Below are positions 2,277-12,214 of a stretch of DNA of 64,000 nt, in pieces. The position numbers were made by a program, and so were the translations under genes. Every line of letters starts with the position of its first letter. The stretch's first letter is position 1. The stretch comes from Escherichia phage vB_EcoM_WFbE185. The notes under the pieces are model-generated. The model had not been told where the DNA came from, did not search any database, and saw nothing but the letters and a program-made list of their open reading frames with translations. The DNA lies in sequence record MK373778.1; one strand, given 5' to 3'.

Positions 2277-2517
2277 CTCGGTCCCATGATTTGGCCATTA
2301 ATTCGGACATAAATTCTTCAATGCGCGTTTCTTTAGATGGACTTTCACTATTAGAGACCGCAAGTTTGTAATCTGCAATAGGACAGAACATATCAAGGTC
2401 CATATTAAGGTCGTCTTTGATTTTTTCTTCTGACACATCTTTATCGTATGTGTACAGATAACTATCACATGATTCTGATTTAATGTAAATTGCTATACTC
2501 ATCTCAAATTCCTGCAT
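2266..2517 (-). CDS. hypothetical protein
   Basis: ORF track 83 aa; overlaps upstream ORF end, consistent with translational coupling. Confidence 0.6.
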   Translation of the reverse strand: MQEFEMSIAIYIKSESCDSYLYTYDKDVSEEKIKDDLNMDLDMFCPIADYKLAVSNSESPSKETRIEEFMSELMAKSWDRDDE

Positions 2518-2990
2518 TCGGTAATAAAACGTTCAACTTCATTATTCTTGGCCTTTATCTTGTCTTTACGTTCCTGTAAACTACTTTTAACAAGATTAAT
2601 AATGATGCCTACAGTACCTCCACCAATAATACCACCAATAATACTTACGATAGTAGATGCTAATAAGATAGCAATAATATCAACAAAACCGAAAGAACTC
2701 ACCTTAGTACTAAAAAACCATACCGACGGTACAAATATAATCCATCCTGTTATCCATTGGCACTTATTGAAAAACTTTTCAAGCTCAGCTTGAGTTGTTC
2801 GTATTACTTCATCGATAGGTTGATATCCGTTAATGTATCTGTTCACGATAATACCTGCTGGCTGGTCGATTTTAAATTCTTGGCAAATACGTTTAACTAA
2901 GTAGGATGGACATCCTGTCCAATCTACTGAATAGTATGAAATACCTTCGTTGCCATCGTCTATATTAGACCAATATGTTTTGTTAATCAT
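2499..2990 (-). CDS. hypothetical membrane protein (two predicted TM helices), C-terminal FITECR
   Basis: ORF track 163 aa; hydrophobic stretches WIIFVPSVWFF and IIAILLASTIVSIIGGIIGGG. Confidence 0.65.
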   Translation of the reverse strand: MINKTYWSNIDDGNEGISYYSVDWTGCPSYLVKRICQEFKIDQPAGIIVNRYINGYQPIDEVIRTTQAELEKFFNKCQWITGWIIFVPSVWFFSTKVSSFGFVDIIAILLASTIVSIIGGIIGGGTVGIIINLVKSSLQERKDKIKAKNNEVERFITECRNLR

Positions 2991-3676
2991 TACCAGCCTT
3001 CCATAGGGAATTCCAGATAAACTTGAGCATTGACACGAATTTCATTGGTAATCTTTTTAACTCGGTCTGTATTACGAGATACACGTCCGAACCAACGCCA
3101 TCCGTTACTAATTGCACGAGAACCAGTGTGCCATGTTTGCCAATCAAACTGAAGAAGAGTACGATCTGGAGCTTCCCATTTCTCTAGTTCACCTTTTTCA
3201 ATTTTTTCGAGGACTTCTTTGTGCCACTGGCGATAGATAAGTTCGCCATCAGGAATCTGACTGAACTCTGCAGTTCCTGTTGCAAAATGAGTAGGACACA
3301 CGTCAGCGTTAACAAGACCAAGAATGTGTTCAGACAAATAGCGAGGATTGTCATAATCAGGTTGTCCTGCAGTAATAAAGTGTTGACCTACCGGAATATC
3401 CGGGCGTGGTACATCGTCATGGTGATAACCTGGGATAGCAGGGTACCAACCAGGCATCAGCATGTGGACTCGTGAATCAAATACAACCTGATCGGTGTTC
3501 CAATCATCTGGCAAGTTCATGATGAAGCTGCGAGTAATAGGACCGCCGTTATTATAAGCAAATTCTAAACTACAGTTGAAGAACATAGGCTCGTTTTTAA
3601 TCTGCTCGTTTTTAATCGCATGAGCAAAACCACCTACTGCACGAGCTTGACTATTAAACACTTTAGAACTATTCAT
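2990..3676 (-). CDS. hypothetical protein
   Basis: ORF track 228 aa; ATG preceded by GAGGA. Confidence 0.7.
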   Translation of the reverse strand: MNSSKVFNSQARAVGGFAHAIKNEQIKNEPMFFNCSLEFAYNNGGPITRSFIMNLPDDWNTDQVVFDSRVHMLMPGWYPAIPGYHHDDVPRPDIPVGQHFITAGQPDYDNPRYLSEHILGLVNADVCPTHFATGTAEFSQIPDGELIYRQWHKEVLEKIEKGELEKWEAPDRTLLQFDWQTWHTGSRAISNGWRWFGRVSRNTDRVKKITNEIRVNAQVYLEFPMEGW

Positions 3677-3677
3677 A

Positions 3678-3983
3678 TTATTTTCCTCGACATTCTTTAA
3701 TGAAATTTTCTAGATTGGTAGATTCAATAGCTTTTTTACGAGCTTCTGCGTGTTCTTCTTCAGACAATTTACGTTTATAATTGACCCAGACATTATGGTC
3801 TAAACCGGTCGTGGCATATAATATCAAAGCTCCGACGAATAATAAAAACGGTGATAAAAATATACAACCAGGAACACCATCCATACTGTAAGCCTTTTGT
3901 AATACTGCAACAGAAAGAGCTGCGTAAAAAAGTGATGCAAATATTGTAAAAAGACCAATTCGGTTGGTTTCGCCTAATTTCAT
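3678..3983 (-). CDS. hypothetical small membrane protein, C-terminal FIKECR
   Basis: ORF track 101 aa; two hydrophobic helices; own early promoter. Confidence 0.7.
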   Translation of the reverse strand: MKLGETNRIGLFTIFASLFYAALSVAVLQKAYSMDGVPGCIFLSPFLLFVGALILYATTGLDHNVWVNYKRKLSEEEHAEARKKAIESTNLENFIKECRGK

Positions 3984-4011
3984 AATATTCTCCTCATGTT
4001 TTAATAGGACT

Positions 4012-4041
4012 ACTATAACATAGCCCTATAATTGTGTAAAC
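4012..4041 (-). promoter_or_regulatory. early promoter cassette (-35 GTTTAC, -10 TATAGT inside ataggact/agtcctat palindrome)
   Basis: minus GTTTACacaattatagggctatgtTATAGT, leader with GAGGAG before ATG 3983. Confidence 0.55.
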
Positions 4042-4053
4042 AGTTTTGTGAAG

Positions 4054-5010
4054 TTATTTGAAAGGTTTTACCATATGGAAATTTTGTTTGAAACGTTTTA
4101 CGTAATCGTCATGTCCTAAGCTTTGGTACATACTTACAACTTTGCTGTAGTTTTCCCAGGCGTATTCACGGAACCAACCGGAGGTGATGCTTGTGCAGAC
4201 TTTTTCTAATGCCATCATGAAACTGGCTTCAGGGTTAATTTTAAAGTCATTAGGAATCTGAGAACGTTCTAATGCTAGTACACATGATTCTTCATATACA
4301 CCGGCCAATTTGACCATTTCTGGTAACGATTCGAACTTCTCGCGTGAGGTCATGACTTCAGAACCGTCTTTCATATAAAATGTATACGCTGGGCGGTCTG
4401 TTAGCGCAATGGCTTCGTGAATAGTGTCATGGTCATATGTATAGATGTCATCTTTAAAGAACGCACTTTTAGAAGTGTCAAGAACTGGGTGAGCATAGTT
4501 CAAGGTTTCTTTCTGGCGTTTCAGCATAATTTCAGTAAGTTCATCGTTCAGTGTAACACCTTTACCACGAAGATACTGAATATGGTTCATAGTCTTTAAA
4601 AAGAATGGATTATTTTTCTTGAAACGATGAGACATCTTAATTGCAAGGCACATCTCAGGAGTCGCCCAGTAAAACCCGTTCAAACGGTCTTTAGACAAAT
4701 TTTTCTTGGCGTATTTTAAAAGGTCATAAGAAGACGTGAAATCTTCAGGAGTGAGTTCACCTACTAATTCACGGACATTAGTGATTGCCGGAACAATATA
4801 TGCTTCAAAATGAGTTTCGCGTCCATTATGGAAGCATTTGAAAACTTGGACATCAGGGTTATCTTGGTGAACATATACACCCATCATTTGATTTTTGAAT
4901 GCATTCCAAGAACATTGGTCCGCAATAAAGTCCCAATCACTATTTTTGATAGCGCTAGAATCAATAAGACCGTGATAGTGAAGTGCACGAGAACCAATAA
5001 CTAACATCAT
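4054..5010 (-). CDS. hypothetical protein, possible nucleotidyltransferase fold
   Basis: ORF track 318 aa; N-terminal IGSRALHYHGL...SDWDFIAD resembles GS...DxD of Pol-beta-type NTases (weak). Confidence 0.7.
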   Translation of the reverse strand: MMLVIGSRALHYHGLIDSSAIKNSDWDFIADQCSWNAFKNQMMGVYVHQDNPDVQVFKCFHNGRETHFEAYIVPAITNVRELVGELTPEDFTSSYDLLKYAKKNLSKDRLNGFYWATPEMCLAIKMSHRFKKNNPFFLKTMNHIQYLRGKGVTLNDELTEIMLKRQKETLNYAHPVLDTSKSAFFKDDIYTYDHDTIHEAIALTDRPAYTFYMKDGSEVMTSREKFESLPEMVKLAGVYEESCVLALERSQIPNDFKINPEASFMMALEKVCTSITSGWFREYAWENYSKVVSMYQSLGHDDYVKRFKQNFHMVKPFK

Positions 5011-5038
5011 AATATTTTCCTCGGATTAATTCATTAAC

Positions 5039-5278
5039 TTAAATTTCACGACATGCGATATTATATTCATCCCAGAGGTCAACATGTGAAGCCTCTACCA
5101 ATGGAACGATTGTACCGTTTATGTCTTCATTATAAGGGCAAATTGTACAGTGCGCATCTTCGAATCGGATGCCTTTATGTTCAGATTTTTTATAACGCAT
5201 ATCGAATATCTTTGCAAACTTTTCACGACTAATAGTTTTAGCAACTACTTCAGTTCCGATACTTTCGTAATAAATCAT
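5039..5278 (-). CDS. hypothetical protein
   Basis: ORF track 5039..5290; second ATG (MIYYES) has GGAG SD, first does not. Confidence 0.6.
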   Translation of the reverse strand: MIYYESIGTEVVAKTISREKFAKIFDMRYKKSEHKGIRFEDAHCTICPYNEDINGTIVPLVEASHVDLWDEYNIACREI

Positions 5279-5306
5279 TGTGGACTCCATTTAATTTGAT
5301 AGGACT

Positions 5307-5336
5307 ACTATAACATAGCCCTATCTTGTTGTAAAC
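5307..5336 (-). promoter_or_regulatory. early promoter cassette (GTTTAC / TATAGT in palindrome)
   Basis: same gataggactactataacatagccctatc cassette as at 4000. Confidence 0.55.
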
Positions 5337-5340
5337 TGTT

Positions 5341-5538
5341 TTAGCAAGAATAACTAGATGATACCCAGCCTTGAACAGTAATACTATTGTGGGATAATGA
5401 GATCGCGTCCTGGAGATTCAGACCTGCGTTATCTTCAATCCATAATGTAACTTCTTCGCGTTCTTCTGTTGCAATCTGGAACAGGTTTTCCAGAGCAGCT
5501 ACTGCGGTACGCACAGCACAATCTAATTCACGAGACAT
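5341..5538 (-). CDS. hypothetical protein, paralog family member (C-terminal GWVSSSYSC)
   Basis: ORF track 65 aa. Confidence 0.6.
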   Translation of the reverse strand: MSRELDCAVRTAVAALENLFQIATEEREEVTLWIEDNAGLNLQDAISLSHNSITVQGWVSSSYSC

Positions 5539-5547
5539 ATTGTTTCC

Positions 5548-5820
5548 TTAACAAGTGTGAGAAGATGCGACCCAACCACCAGTTTCGAGGCTCAAGTTGT
5601 AGTCGTATTGGTAAACGTCAGCCCATTCAGCATAGCCGTTTTTTGTACAACGTTCAAGATCAGCTTTAAGATGTCCGGGTGAATGATAGGTTCCACCCAT
5701 ACCATAAGCTGGGTACAAGTTGAATGTTGTGTTTTGTTTATCGGCAATTTCTTTGGCAGCCTCAATAGCTGCATAGATTTTTGCTACAGCTTCAGCCAGT
5801 TCGGTTTGTTCTTTAGACAT
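5548..5820 (-). CDS. hypothetical protein, paralog family member (C-terminal GWVASSHTC)
   Basis: ORF track 90 aa. Confidence 0.65.
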   Translation of the reverse strand: MSKEQTELAEAVAKIYAAIEAAKEIADKQNTTFNLYPAYGMGGTYHSPGHLKADLERCTKNGYAEWADVYQYDYNLSLETGGWVASSHTC

Positions 5821-5829
5821 AATGATTCC

Positions 5830-6135
5830 TTAGCACAACGCAGAAGACGAAACCCAAGCACCTTCAGTAATAACGTAACCATTACCTTCACGCTTAACAT
5901 CGCCACCATTATTTTCAATTTCATCTTTCATCCACTGGGATACGATTTCACCCTTAGGATAATAAGTACGACCGCTACCATAATCACCTACAGAAAATGA
6001 TACGGCATATTGGTCTGCGATCTTTGTTGCTTCTTCTTCGATACGTTCAGCTTGATTCAGAAGTTTATAAATTGCATCTGAAGCGGATTTGGCATCATTA
6101 AACTCTGGTACTTTAATTTCAATAATCTTACTCAT
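5830..6135 (-). CDS. hypothetical protein, paralog family member (C-terminal AWVSSSALC)
   Basis: ORF track 101 aa. Confidence 0.65.
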   Translation of the reverse strand: MSKIIEIKVPEFNDAKSASDAIYKLLNQAERIEEEATKIADQYAVSFSVGDYGSGRTYYPKGEIVSQWMKDEIENNGGDVKREGNGYVITEGAWVSSSALC

Positions 6136-6205
6136 TTTCTACATTCCTTAATAAAGTTTTCGATTGTTTCATTTTCACGTTTAGCTAGGAGTTCATTATA
6201 ACTAT

Positions 6206-6490
6206 TCATTTGAGAAGCGTAAACCCTTTTATTTTCTTGTTATGGTTTATAAAATCGTAGTAAAAATAGACTACAGTACAAAATGATGCGATTGATGCAA
6301 AGGCTTGAGTATATCGTAAGTCCTGCCACTGGTCTGTGAATCCACCAGTGTTCCCTATAAATCCTAACACAACGCCGTCAATAAGAAATCCAACTAATCC
6401 AAAGGCAAATCCCATGCCAATACTCATAATAAAAATTAGAATGTTCTCACCAAGAGAAGGCCATACGGTTAAGAGTTGAGGCTTTTGCAT
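6206..6490 (-). CDS. hypothetical small membrane protein
   Basis: ORF track 94 aa; hydrophobic core ILIFIMSIGMGFAFGLVGFLIDGVVLGFIG; start overlaps upstream ORF. Confidence 0.6.
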   Translation of the reverse strand: MQKPQLLTVWPSLGENILIFIMSIGMGFAFGLVGFLIDGVVLGFIGNTGGFTDQWQDLRYTQAFASIASFCTVVYFYYDFINHNKKIKGFTLLK

Positions 6491-6864
6491 CTTATTTCCT
6501 TAACGAATTCCATAGCTTCTTCATATTCATACTTTTTAACAGCTTCATCATACTGAGCTTGGGCTTTTGCGCACTGAACTTTCCATTCTCTTAATCGGGC
6601 TCTGTGATGACGGCCTTGGTGCCAATATCCTGCCCAATTAATAGGCATTAATAAAAATGGTACAATAAGTGGGGCGACGAACATTAATGAAAATGCTGCA
6701 TCAGACGATATAACTTTACTAGAATCTAAAACAGCTCCTATAATCATAAAGATTAAAAATGCTAAAGCTAAAATAGGGCCAAATAGTACTTCGTTTGGGA
6801 TTAATTTACGTTTGTATTCGTATGCCCAGGGCTTAATTGGCATGTACAGGGTTGGCTTTGACAT
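6469..6864 (-). CDS. hypothetical membrane protein, C-terminal EFVKEIRC
   Basis: ORF track 6469..6894 begins with TTG; first ATG at 6864 (MSKPTLY); two hydrophobic helices. Confidence 0.6.
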   Translation of the reverse strand: MSKPTLYMPIKPWAYEYKRKLIPNEVLFGPILALAFLIFMIIGAVLDSSKVISSDAAFSLMFVAPLIVPFLLMPINWAGYWHQGRHHRARLREWKVQCAKAQAQYDEAVKKYEYEEAMEFVKEIRCKSLNS

Positions 6865-7435
6865 ATTCTCTACATTCCATAATAAATTGCTCAAGGATTA
6901 AATTGTTAGTGAAATTAGGACTAACAACCATAGTTTCATAAAGCGCATCAATAGCACTTAAAGCATCAACTCTTTTAAGCAAAGGCTTGCCTTCATACAT
7001 AGTTTCAGAATCAACGATTAACGTAAAGTAATATTTTTTATTATCGACTAGAACTTCTGTGTCGATATAAAACATATTAGACCTCAGAAGCTTATCTCTA
7101 AAACCATAATAATCTTCTGAACGTTCGCTGATATATTCCCATTCAGTGTTTAAACAACAAACAGACCACGTAGGAGAAACGAAATCAGTGAATCTAATAT
7201 CATGGTCTGCAACTAGTTTAGCAATAGCTCCGATATCATGAATCATAATACCTGGGGCTAATAAAGATTTTCTGCTATGGCTAGCCGTTTTCTCAGTGGT
7301 CTCATAAGAAGCTGACCAGTACCATTTACGTCCGGTTGCAACATATCGTAATGAATCAACTAAAGACGTAGGTGGATTTACCTTATCTCGGAACTCTTCG
7401 AACATTGAGTCAATATCATTATTTTGGTTTCGCAT
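6833..7435 (-). CDS. hypothetical protein, C-terminal FIMECR
   Basis: ORF track 6833..7456 begins with TTG; ATG at 7435 preceded by AAAGGAG. Confidence 0.7.
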   Translation of the reverse strand: MRNQNNDIDSMFEEFRDKVNPPTSLVDSLRYVATGRKWYWSASYETTEKTASHSRKSLLAPGIMIHDIGAIAKLVADHDIRFTDFVSPTWSVCCLNTEWEYISERSEDYYGFRDKLLRSNMFYIDTEVLVDNKKYYFTLIVDSETMYEGKPLLKRVDALSAIDALYETMVVSPNFTNNLILEQFIMECREYVKANPVHAN

Positions 7436-7458: not shown

Positions 7459-7476
7459 GGAGGACCGGAGTCCTCC
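7459..7476 (-). terminator. intrinsic terminator hairpin after ORF 7485..8078
   Basis: ggaggaccggagtcctcc stem-loop followed by T-run on minus strand. Confidence 0.5.
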
Positions 7477-7484
7477 GTATTATT

Positions 7485-8078
7485 TTATTTCAAAGAGTTA
7501 ATATATTCTTGTACATCAGCAGAAGTGGTTTCGACACCGGCTAGAGTGCCATTAAACGTTTCAACACGAGTCAGAGTGTCTTCGATATCAACCTTAGTCA
7601 GTGCAGCGATTTCAATTACATCATCGGCTGTAGAGATACCAAGGGCATTGGCTGCTCGAGTTTCACGAATGTATTCGAGTTTGATTGCCAGGTTCTGACG
7701 AGCATCGTCAAGTTCAACCACCTTACGAGCAATTTCAATTCGCATAGCGGCATACCCGTCAGCTTTTGTATTAAGTTGTTCGGCAGTTCGACGATACAGA
7801 AGACCAAGCTTAGCATGCATGGTAACATCTTGTCCTTCGGCCAAGAGCTTACGAATTTCACGTTCCTTAGAAGCGGCTTGCTTATTCTTTTCAATAACAA
7901 GTTCGCGAATACGTTTTTCTTCATTAATAGATTTAACAGAGGCCGTTTTTAGTTCTTTGATTTGGGTAATCAACTTATCTGCAGCTGCGTTATACTGTTC
8001 TTCGACAGTCAGATTTTTAGCCATAGCAGTACCCAGTTTAGTGCGGATGAATTCAACAAGTTTCTTCAGTGTGTTCAT
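7485..8078 (-). CDS. hypothetical coiled-coil protein
   Basis: ORF track 7485..8120; ATG at 8078 (MNTLKKL); charged heptad-like sequence throughout. Confidence 0.7.
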
Positions 8079-8147
8079 ATTATTACCTTTCAATTGGTGG
8101 TTTATTATCCATGAGAGCATTATACTCTGCTCTCAAGAGTTTGTAAA

Positions 8148-8403: not shown

Positions 8404-8433
8404 ACTATAACATAAACTTACTTAGATGTAAAT
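8404..8433 (-). promoter_or_regulatory. early promoter cassette (ATTTAC / TATAGT in palindrome)
   Basis: gataggactactataacat motif upstream of ORF 8148..8375. Confidence 0.45.
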
Positions 8434-9085: not shown

Positions 9086-9550
9086 TTATTTAATTTGTTT
9101 AGCAGACCAGATACGGTCTTTAATAAGTTTTTGGATATCTTCAACATACTCAAGGCTATGAGCGTGAGGATTATCTTTGAAGCTATGTGCTCGAGCGAGT
9201 TTCTGACCTTCAGTTTTGATTACCAAAAGTTCTTTAAGAATTGCTTCATACTTAGAAATAATTCCTTTGGCGATATTTTTTTCTTGAGCTGCTTTAGGGT
9301 CCGCTTTTGGTGATGGTGCTTTACCTGTAGCTTTCTGGAACAATTCACCTGATGCAGCTAGGCTTTTAAAAACTCGACTAACAGTATTAGCATTAGTAAA
9401 TCCTTCAGCTTTAAAATCTCTAATAAAACGGAAACGTTCTTCATCAGAGGCGTCTTTATAAGAATATTTACCTGCTTGAATTGCTGCAATTGCTGCGGCT
9501 TTTACATCTGAACTAGATTGTTCAGTCAAAAATTCTGCATATGATTTCAT
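9086..9550 (-). CDS. internal head protein-like, leader MKSYAEFLTE
   Basis: ORF track 154 aa; capsid targeting leader; flanked by near-identical hairpins. Confidence 0.7.
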   Translation of the reverse strand: MKSYAEFLTEQSSSDVKAAAIAAIQAGKYSYKDASDEERFRFIRDFKAEGFTNANTVSRVFKSLAASGELFQKATGKAPSPKADPKAAQEKNIAKGIISKYEAILKELLVIKTEGQKLARAHSFKDNPHAHSLEYVEDIQKLIKDRIWSAKQIK

Positions 9551-11950: not shown

Positions 11951-12214
11951 TTAAATTCCAGCTTCGCGTTTAACATAATCAACATAAGCTTCGATAGCTT
12001 TCTTGCTGGTAATTTTTACCTGGCCACGTCCATTGCCTTCTTTAGAGTTTTTCTTAACAACTACATTACCATCTTTAACACCCCATACATGGACATAAGT
12101 ACCGATGTTTCGGTCGTAGAACATTGCATGGTCGTTGTTGTAAGAGAATGATTCGTAGTTCTCCGACAGAGTAGAAGATTGAGATTCAGCGATAAATTCT
12201 TTATACGTTTTCAT
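11951..12214 (-). CDS. internal head protein-like, leader MKTYKEFIAE
   Basis: ORF track 87 aa. Confidence 0.7.
   Translation of the reverse strand: MKTYKEFIAESQSSTLSENYESFSYNNDHAMFYDRNIGTYVHVWGVKDGNVVVKKNSKEGNGRGQVKITSKKAIEAYVDYVKREAGI

Follow-up and report, generated by a model that had tools for sequence, protein, structure and literature searches.

We report that five neighbouring early genes of an RB69-like T4-type phage, e.2, ORF133c, e.3, e.4 and e.5, encode proteins with a common short C-terminal peptide, as seen in a 64-kb stretch of DNA from Escherichia phage vB_EcoM_WFbE185 (sequence record MK373778.1; hereafter, the window). From the alignments the core of this peptide reads hydrophobic-x-x-[FW]-[IV]-x-x-C-[RK], and we refer to the two variable positions before the Cys as x1 and x2. 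The motif is non-random, is confined to the e.2-e.5 block and is independent of the position of the ribosome-binding site. Tentatively, we favor the view that it forms a portable C-terminal helix on the cytoplasmic side of the membrane, maintained by protein-level selection, which would dock early proteins to a common, putative partner.

The window is approximately 96-97% identical to RB69-like phages (Mosigvirus, Tevenvirinae), and genes across its first 16 kb run in the minus-strand direction. By RB69 annotation, the carriers include e.2 (2499-2990), ORF133c (3678-3983), e.4 (6469-6864) and e.5 (6833-7435). A preliminary description of this DNA, made from the sequence alone, had placed C-terminal copies of the motif in these four open reading frames (ORFs), and all four (RFITECRNLR, NFIKECRGK, EFVKEIR and QFIMECR) lie where it located them, on the minus strand. 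It had overlooked a fifth copy, ENFIKECRK (6138-6155); the 25-codon ORF that holds this copy, 6132-6209, is the 3' end of e.3, cut off from the rest of the gene. In all six frames of the window, FIxECR occurs four times against an expectation of 0.031 (Poisson 4e-8), and the looser pattern [LIVMA]xxF[IV]x[ED]x[RK] matches exactly the five sites and no other among 128,000 six-frame residues. These five sites are on a single strand (minus), span 4.4 kb and each lie within 12 residues of a stop codon.

In e.2, which consists of an N-terminal soluble domain, two transmembrane (TM) helices and a C-terminal helix, the copy V-E-R-F-I-T-E-C-R (2511-2537, minus strand, as are all copies and genes below) leads into the end RFITECRNLR. 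The ORF133c homologue, with two TM helices followed by a charged helix, carries L-E-N-F-I-K-E-C-R (3687-3713) and ends NFIKECRGK. The e.3 copy, I-E-N-F-I-K-E-C-R (6138-6164), ends ENFIKECRK, and the 5' part of e.3 (6206-6490, 94 codons) encodes two hydrophobic helices. The copy near the C-terminus of e.4, another protein with two TM helices, is a variant, A-M-E-F-V-K-E-I-R (6490-6516), with Ile in place of Cys and a Cys two residues further on, in the tail CKSLNS. In the soluble e.5, L-E-Q-F-I-M-E-C-R (6869-6895) stands 11 residues before the end, and the codons of the tail EYVKANPVHAN run across the e.4 start (ATG 6864-6862). The earlier equation of the motif with the protein end is therefore right for the 2499-2990 and 3678-3983 ORFs, but not for e.5 or for e.4, where six residues follow; its two hydrophobic helices in three of the four ORFs were borne out by hydropathy.

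The motif is present in at least seven lineages: Mosigvirus, Tequatrovirus, Gaprivervirus, Dhakavirus, Kanagawavirus, Karamvirus-like phages and uncultured T4-like contigs. In each family, the motif is the most conserved block or close to it, at overall identities of 20-30%. Mean pairwise identity in the four core columns versus the rest of the protein is 0.92 versus 0.26 for e.2, 0.75 versus 0.26 for e.3 and 0.86 versus 0.24 for e.5, placing the core (0.75-0.92) well above the protein background (0.24-0.26); as a window, the motif ranks 2nd of 138, 2nd of 107 and 6th of 184 in conservation in these three families, respectively. Only six residues are invariant among 19 e.2 homologues at 25-33% identity (W7, D11, G16, W24, C159 and R160), four of them in the N-terminal domain and the other two being the C and R of the motif. 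Likewise, the F, C and R of the motif make up three of the eight invariant residues (M1, S91, N96, F137, F184, C188, R189 and K193) of six e.5 and e.5-like proteins.

Of the twelve true homologues that an exhaustive HMMER search with e.2 yielded, nine are divergent (26-36% identity), and these end FIKGCRK, FIKDCRK, WIEGCRK, FIEECRK, FIKGCRNGHN or WIKRCRRD; one cluster of e.2 homologues includes Enterobacter and Kosakonia phages. The motif was also found in SP18 (Gaprivervirus), Bp7 (Dhakavirus), PEi20 (Kanagawavirus), a 171-kb IMG/VR contig and three metagenomic T4-like contigs, in all of which the e.2, e.3-like and e.5-like proteins are tagged wherever the gene lies within the stretch read. 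In T4, e.3 ends ..EFVIDCRKIK and e.4 ends ..KFVKESRCKSQS, and the end of e.5 reads ..KFVKECREYVKA... The Cys position of e.4 is Ser in T4 and Val in SP18, and this Cys-less form (I, V, L or S) is found at the ends of e.4, of e.4-like proteins with two TM helices and of gp133-like proteins. Soluble proteins are tagged as well, namely a family of 96-98 amino acids (..FIKMCRG.., ..FIQMCRR..) and gp135 of SP18 and Bp7 (..KLFLEYCRSS..). The ORF133c family is confined to Mosigvirus (149 near-full-length tblastn records). In every lineage in which that part was read, the gene order e.6, e.5, two-TM carrier is kept and the e.5 gene overlaps or abuts the start of that carrier gene. The Glu that the preliminary description had included in its motif (F-I-x-E-C-R) is only partly a peptide feature; it is typical of E. 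coli phages only and is replaced elsewhere by G, D, Q, M, N or R.

In T4, 123 kb were scanned, the early regions at 1-74 kb and 120-169 kb among them, and the strict form [FW][IVL]xxC[RK] was found close to the C-terminus of a same-strand frame in the e.2 remnant (see below), e.3 and e.5 only; the sole other match is in an unannotated frame antisense to gene 49.1. A single-sequence search with e.5 of a 5.8-billion protein set returned three near-identical proteins only, to which a profile search added only the Dhakavirus/Gaprivervirus type and one metagenomic type. A scan of IMG/VR DNA for F-I-x-x-C-R-K-stop with an ATGA overlap identified at least four true T4-like loci.

Several further candidates were rejected. 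A prophage sequence ending ..ETLLNQKFIQQCRK before a stop, directly upstream of a gene for 278 amino acids (MTNRRHEENWKLRAEACRKKG..), comprises only 14 codons after the previous stop and has no start codon; it is highly repeated (L015, L018, L023 and at least 55 other IMG/VR prophage-like contigs) and is probably a chance match multiplied by redundancy. The window ORF 5039-5290 (..YNIACREI) was dismissed as an extra copy, its PEi20 homologue ending ..HNTYCQEI, as was thymidine kinase (..YVSLCRKHW..), in which the match is a loose-pattern coincidence within the conserved C-terminal region of an enzyme family. A 'class II' pattern, [FY]-[IVA]-x-x-[VIL]-[RK], seen at the ends of e.6, gp133 and others, is too permissive, at about twice the chance expectation. 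The protein e.6 (7485-8120) ends ..EYINSLK in the window and ..EYLASLK or ..EYIESLKA in other lineages; its beginning as well as its end bears a loose resemblance to the Cys-less form, and both are kept in every lineage seen, but the pattern is too permissive for a claim of relationship.

As an alternative to a peptide signal, the preliminary description had raised a conserved translation-coupling sequence, noting that the motif codons overlap the Shine-Dalgarno sequence or start of the next gene in two cases. The overlap is real and extends beyond two cases, since the motif abuts or overlaps the next Shine-Dalgarno sequence in all five window copies. Shine-Dalgarno sequences were located by duplex folding of upstream regions against the 16S 3' end. 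That of the RB69 ORF130c homologue (2266-2502; ATG 2502-2500; element 2500-2513) is CAGGAA in the Arg and following (+1) codons of e.2, and the PHROG match of this homologue starts at its second Met. The gene after ORF133c (start 3676) uses CGAGGA in the Arg and Gly codons of ORF133c, the gene after e.3 (start 6135) uses TTAAGGAA in the I, x1 and x2 codons, and e.3 itself (ATG 6490-6488) uses TTAAGGAA in the V, K and E codons of e.4. A 14-nt gap between the e.5 motif and the next start had been reported; this was mistaken, as the Arg codon ends at 6869 and only 4 nt separate it from the e.4 ATG.

Counted from the first base of the Cys codon, the next ATG follows at 5, 7, 8, 10, 11, 14, 16, 26 or approximately 43 nt; in 24 of the 26 copies analyzed this distance is 5-16 nt, with the Shine-Dalgarno sequence within or next to the motif. 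Where the ATG is 5-10 nt away, the Shine-Dalgarno sequence occupies the I/x1/x2 codons (TTAAGGAA, TTGAGGAA or AAAGGAT), and x1-x2 are then mostly AAG GAA, GAG GAA or AAA GGA; at 14-16 nt, it occupies the Arg/+1 codons (CAGGAA, CGAGGA or AGAGGAA). These regularities, and the near-invariance of the 3' ends among four Mosigvirus genomes, synonymous sites included, speak for a signal at the nucleotide level, either the translation-initiation region of the overlapping gene or an RNA structure, of which the peptide would be a by-product. We nonetheless regard such a signal as very improbable, and as the sole cause it is largely refuted by the comparisons that follow.

The codons that form the Shine-Dalgarno sequence differ from copy to copy, and two e.5 genes have it entirely beyond the motif: that of the uncultured contig L009, where the ATG follows the Cys codon by 26 nt, and, by sequence inspection, that of PEi20 (approximately 43 nt). 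The gp135 proteins carry F-L-E-Y-C-R with no overlapping downstream gene, the gaps being 64 nt in SP18 and 43 nt in Bp7. Among 38 tabulated copies, the Cys, present in 29, is encoded by TGC (13) or TGT (16), and the Arg, present in 34, by five codons from both codon families (AGA 12, CGT 8, AGG 6, CGA 6 and CGC 2), with Lys in four copies; the aromatic residue is Phe (TTT 30, TTC 7) or Trp (TGG 1), a change from TTY to TGG. Within the window, the ENFIKECR segments of e.3 and ORF133c differ at four synonymous and zero non-synonymous sites. Windows of 78 nt around the motif are no more structured than shuffled sequences (mean z = +0.34) and give an empty RNAalifold consensus, leading us to reject a conserved RNA structure. 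No fixed spacing links the motif to a downstream start or Shine-Dalgarno sequence, amino acids and not bases are the better conserved, and the motif persists where no downstream gene overlaps it.

The synonymous variation, the moving Shine-Dalgarno sequence, the occurrence of the motif without an overlapping gene and the absence of a conserved fold together show that the conserved positions are under protein-level selection; x1, x2 and the residue after the Arg frequently reflect the following gene's ribosome-binding site. The preference of the preliminary description for a peptide tag over a coupling string is upheld by these data, and the alignment of orthologues that it had proposed shows conservation following the peptide, with synonymous changes tolerated; we saw neither the nucleotide string conserved in other frames nor the motif lost where a downstream overlap is lacking. 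Its coupling alternative retains some truth in that the x1/x2 codons often are the Shine-Dalgarno sequence of the next gene, but leaves the conserved positions unexplained.

We also considered that the element might serve as a recombination linker, a micro-homology at gene ends for cassette shuffling, comparable to promoter-early-stem-loop cassettes or lambdoid boundary sequences. The region is indeed variable, RB69 having, compared with T4, an insertion of ORF132c to ORF139c that separates e.2 from e.3, and T4 e.4 and e.5 share 16 identical bases at the motif. However, window copies have no more than about 10 contiguous bases in common and vary at their synonymous sites, and across lineages amino-acid conservation far exceeds nucleotide conservation. 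The element is coding and not intergenic, and has neither a promoter nor a hairpin of its own, promoter-like sites being located elsewhere. We judge this possibility to be extremely improbable.

The relatedness of the carrier families was assessed by profile-profile comparison (hhalign) with and without the last 14 residues. The families e.3, e.4, ORF133c and the C-terminal half of e.2 matched one another at 86-96% probability, except for e.2 versus e.4 (18%), and the e.2 versus e.3 and e.3 versus ORF133c alignments cover just the motif and its surroundings, 17 columns in all. Once the last 14 residues were cut off, e.3 versus e.4 remained at 74% and e.4 versus ORF133c at 25%, and every pair involving e.2 fell to 3.4% or below. 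These values suggest that e.3 and e.4 are probably tandem paralogues, and the other carriers appear unrelated at detectable levels. The preliminary description had called the carriers otherwise unrelated, which fits e.2, e.5 and ORF133c and does not fit e.3 and e.4, which look like paralogues even without the motif. Apart from this pair, the peptide is shared by proteins with no other detectable similarity, soluble and membrane carriers among them.

These comparisons also bear on whether the motif is an inherited remnant of an ancient family of small proteins with two TM helices (e.3, e.4, ORF133c and the C-terminal half of e.2) that have no shared partner. Under this explanation, the motif would have spread to the soluble carriers by junction duplication or recombination, because the 3' end of each gene carries the start region of the next, and it would be kept for generic structural upkeep, for example as a membrane-proximal helix cap. 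In keeping with such an origin, e.3 and e.4 are related without the motif and e.4 and ORF133c weakly so, ORF133c matches the e.2 PHROG over the second TM helix (TM2) and tail (E = 2.8e-4), and all two-TM carriers have a single layout of two TM helices, a basic stretch, a charged helix and the motif. Moreover, the e.5/e.4 and e.4/e.3 junctions of T4 have 16 identical bases in common (AAATTTGTTAAGGAAT) and similar starts (ATG.CAAAGCCA), the expected trace of junction duplication. On the other hand, an origin does not account for maintenance, and C and R are invariant at 20-30% identity in three families with saturated synonymous change. Nor do the soluble carriers (e.5, the 96-98-amino-acid family and gp135), all without TM helices, have a membrane helix to cap, and the C-terminal half of e.2 is unlike the others once the motif is removed. 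We consider a mere remnant rather unlikely.

Family libraries file the carriers separately, and the entries inspected give no sign that a common C-terminal block has been noted. In PHROGs, the carriers fall into five separate families (2203, 9798, 2330, 2604 and 2607), four annotated as 'unknown function' and one as 'membrane protein'. A newer Pfam release holds two uncharacterized whole-protein families, PF26896 (Phage_T4_Y06M) for e.2 and PF26876 for e.5, each seen as a significant match among precomputed hits, the former on e.2 homologues and the latter on e.5. The copy of Pfam that we scanned with the carriers gave no family for any of them (PF26896 and PF26876 were not reported for e.2 and e.5), and no carrier matched an anti-phage defense model in a PADLOC scan. 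A search for relatives among solved structures found none for e.2, e.5 or e.6, and a fold search with the e.2 model among predicted viral structures returned only its own orthologues.

The motif segment is predicted to be helical, with the conserved side chains within a 140-degree face. On a helical wheel, F (0 degrees), C (40), the hydrophobic residue at -3 (60), I (100) and R (140) share one face, and x1 (200) and x2 (300) point to the other. In an AlphaFold2 model of e.2 (mean predicted local distance difference test score, pLDDT, 71.6), the TM2 helix continues unbroken through the motif (helix 102-161). By hydropathy and the positive-inside rule, ORF133c and e.4 have a cytoplasmic N- and C-terminus, and the pattern of e.2 fits likewise; hydropathy finds one clear hydrophobic helix in e.3 at the threshold used and none in e.5. 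These patterns suggest an N-in/C-in topology with the motif at the cytoplasmic end.

It is this one-face geometry that leads us to propose a docking helix. The preliminary description had named partner binding or localisation as an example of what such a tag might do, and this purpose is likewise putative. The tag would stand at the cytoplasmic ends of e.2, ORF133c and e.3, each with two TM helices, and of the soluble e.5, with e.4 carrying a Cys-less form, and would tie the carriers to one common partner. The simplest such partner would be the carriers themselves, assembling as a membrane-bound hetero-oligomer of translationally coupled subunits at the inner membrane. Because the outward-facing x1/x2 positions would be free, evolution may have recruited their codons, or those after the Arg, as the Shine-Dalgarno sequence of the overlapping gene.

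Genes of the block look to be frequently inactivated in sequenced isolates, which would suit a role needed only under some conditions. In the window, e.3 is one A short in an A-run near 6231-6236 (A5 in RB69, A4 here), and the resulting frameshift leaves the 94-codon ORF and the 25-codon ORF described above, which match positions 1-91 and 98-122, respectively, of the 122 of phrog_2330. The 25-codon ORF starts with an ATGA overlap and holds little beyond the motif. The e.3 gene is intact, at 119 amino acids, in RB69, AV110 and phage 55; the split is either a homopolymer sequencing error or a real inactivation. An early-promoter-like site (TTTACG, 17 nt, TATAAT; 6195-6223, minus strand) lies inside e.3, right where the frame shifts and the 25-codon ORF begins. 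In T4, e.2 is broken: the annotated gene stops at a TAG, which a TAA follows in frame, and the 160-nt 'intergenic' gap between nudE and e.2 (L002, 3492-3652) is the 3' part of e.2, whose frame goes on to ..NNFITECRKLK (..FIEMPWRLRRQQKIFDEKKYAQNLNNFITECRKLK) and overlaps the nudE start. The e.2 gene of fPS-90 (Tequatrovirus) is intact and matches this remnant frame. In AV110, the closest relative of the window, the e.4 position (L135, 4471-4650) is annotated as 59 amino acids only, and e.4 seems to be truncated.

Several observations weigh against a docking helix. That block genes are so often broken makes an obligatory complex unlikely. The hydrophobic moment is significant for e.3 only, is borderline for e.2 and ORF133c and is not significant for e.4 or e.5, and the AlphaFold2 model of e.5, built on a shallow alignment, reaches a pLDDT of only 40.7, which bears on the exposure of its motif. 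Among four Mosigvirus genomes, the last 20-27 codons of e.2 and ORF133c are almost unchanged, with two synonymous sites varying in e.2 and none in ORF133c, and an additional short-range nucleotide constraint may act beside the peptide constraint. Finally, an invariant Cys-Arg exceeds the needs of a hydrophobic docking face and hints at chemistry, such as metal binding or modification; at the same time, e.4-like and gp133-like proteins have I, V, L or S for the Cys, so that the Cys is dispensable in some carriers.

The Cys-Arg pair could instead make the motif a chemical or regulatory tag, at which the protein would be covalently modified, bind a metal or be recognized for timed proteolysis. 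Conceivable cases are Arg ADP-ribosylation by Alt, ModA or ModB, a metal bridged by the Cys residues, or a basic degron for a host AAA+ protease. T4 encodes Arg-specific ADP-ribosyltransferases, and NudE and the macro-domain protein Tk.4 act on ADP-ribose compounds; nudE and Tk.4 are annotated close to the e.2-e.5 block. Such a role would be consistent with the strict invariance of Cys and Arg beside hydrophobic positions that tolerate F/W and I/V/L, with the basic tails after the motif (CRK, CRKIK, CRNLR and CRGK), and with the phage enzymes and nearby genes just named. Against it, the Cys is missing in the e.4-like subset of carriers (I, V, L or S), the distance of 0-15 residues from motif to C-terminus is a poor fit to a C-terminal degron, and the Pfam and PADLOC scans described above matched no family or defense model. 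We regard a chemical tag as distinctly unlikely. A more specific form, in which e.2, e.3, e.5 and lineage-specific companions bring their C-terminal helices together around a metal or cluster (one Cys per chain, in a phage-made complex at the inner membrane) or are targets of a common phage or host modifying enzyme, strikes us as quite improbable; were it correct, a modifying-enzyme target, for example for Arg ADP-ribosylation, would allow the whole set of early proteins to be switched at once.

Returning to the docking helix, known terminal peptides of T4-type phages offer partial parallels. The T4 capsid targeting sequence is an N-terminal MKTYxEF[IL]xE that targets proteins to the prohead, and the gp21 protease removes it by cleaving behind the Glu. 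Like the present motif, it is a short terminal peptide on unrelated small proteins in variable regions, and its amphipathic helix contains E-F-I-x-E. In contrast, the motif is C-terminal rather than N-terminal, its carriers are membrane and cytoplasmic proteins whose genes lie in units with early-type promoter-like sites, it includes an invariant Cys-Arg, and many members lack [LI]-x-E; a gp21 protease site (I-x-E) was rejected because the Glu is not conserved outside E. coli phages. Window ORFs 278-538, 1017-1313, 9086-9550 and 11951-12214 begin MK[TMS]YxEF[IL]xE, which is this targeting sequence as found on T4-type internal proteins; its EFIxE recalls the first half of the C-terminal motif.

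The C-terminal tails of T4 gp43, gp55 and gp33 bind the gp45 sliding clamp through a consensus of approximately [ST]LDFL[FY]. Here too, unrelated proteins end in one short aromatic/hydrophobic peptide, and docking to a common hub is our working model; unlike the clamp tails, whose hub is gp45, our motif has a different consensus with Cys-Arg, is carried mostly by membrane proteins and has only a putative hub. Stop/start overlaps with an embedded Shine-Dalgarno sequence, that is, translational coupling, are common in T4 early gene clusters, and the five window copies conform, ATGA or short overlaps being the rule; coupling covers only the bias at x1, x2 and after the Arg, not the F/W, I/V, C and R.

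A second, distinct conserved C-terminal motif of the region, G-W-V-S-S-S-x-x-C at the protein end, occurs in three adjacent small paralogues (5830-6135, 5548-5820 and 5341-5538, ending GAWVSSSALC, GGWVASSHTC and QGWVSSSYSC). Every related phage examined has three to six genes ending ..SSxxC or ..PSSC.

The carriers of the window fall into two units, e.5-e.4-e.3.. and ORF133c-ORF132c-e.2.., that show early-type promoter-like sites. Further early-type sites lie at 4012-4040, 5307-5335, 8119-8147 and 8404-8432, and a hairpin terminator (7459-7476) lies between e.6 and e.5. Directly upstream of e.2, and joined to it by an ATGA overlap, is the ORF132c homologue (2990-3676), with 228 amino acids (..HMLMPGWYPAIPGYHHDDVPRPD..GQPDYDNPRY..). 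It is very well conserved in Mosigvirus, Gaprivervirus, Dhakavirus, Kanagawavirus and metagenomic contigs, whereas T4 lacks it; the protein has an enzyme-like look with no Pfam match.

A literature search on the e.2-e.5 genes or the C-terminal motif found nothing, and the motif with its carriers, for which we found no published description or function, is a new case of shared terminal peptide tags. A shared, strongly selected tag would mean that otherwise unrelated proteins, together with lineage-specific ones, form one functional set, and e.2-e.5 are among the many functionally unassigned T4 early genes, in a variable region that also holds counter-defense and host-takeover genes. The tag would further provide an experimental handle, in that the motif peptide can serve as bait and point mutations of the C and R should disable several proteins alike. 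Lastly, it would be a clean example of dual coding, in which outward helix positions double as the ribosome-binding site of the next gene and inward positions are under protein selection.

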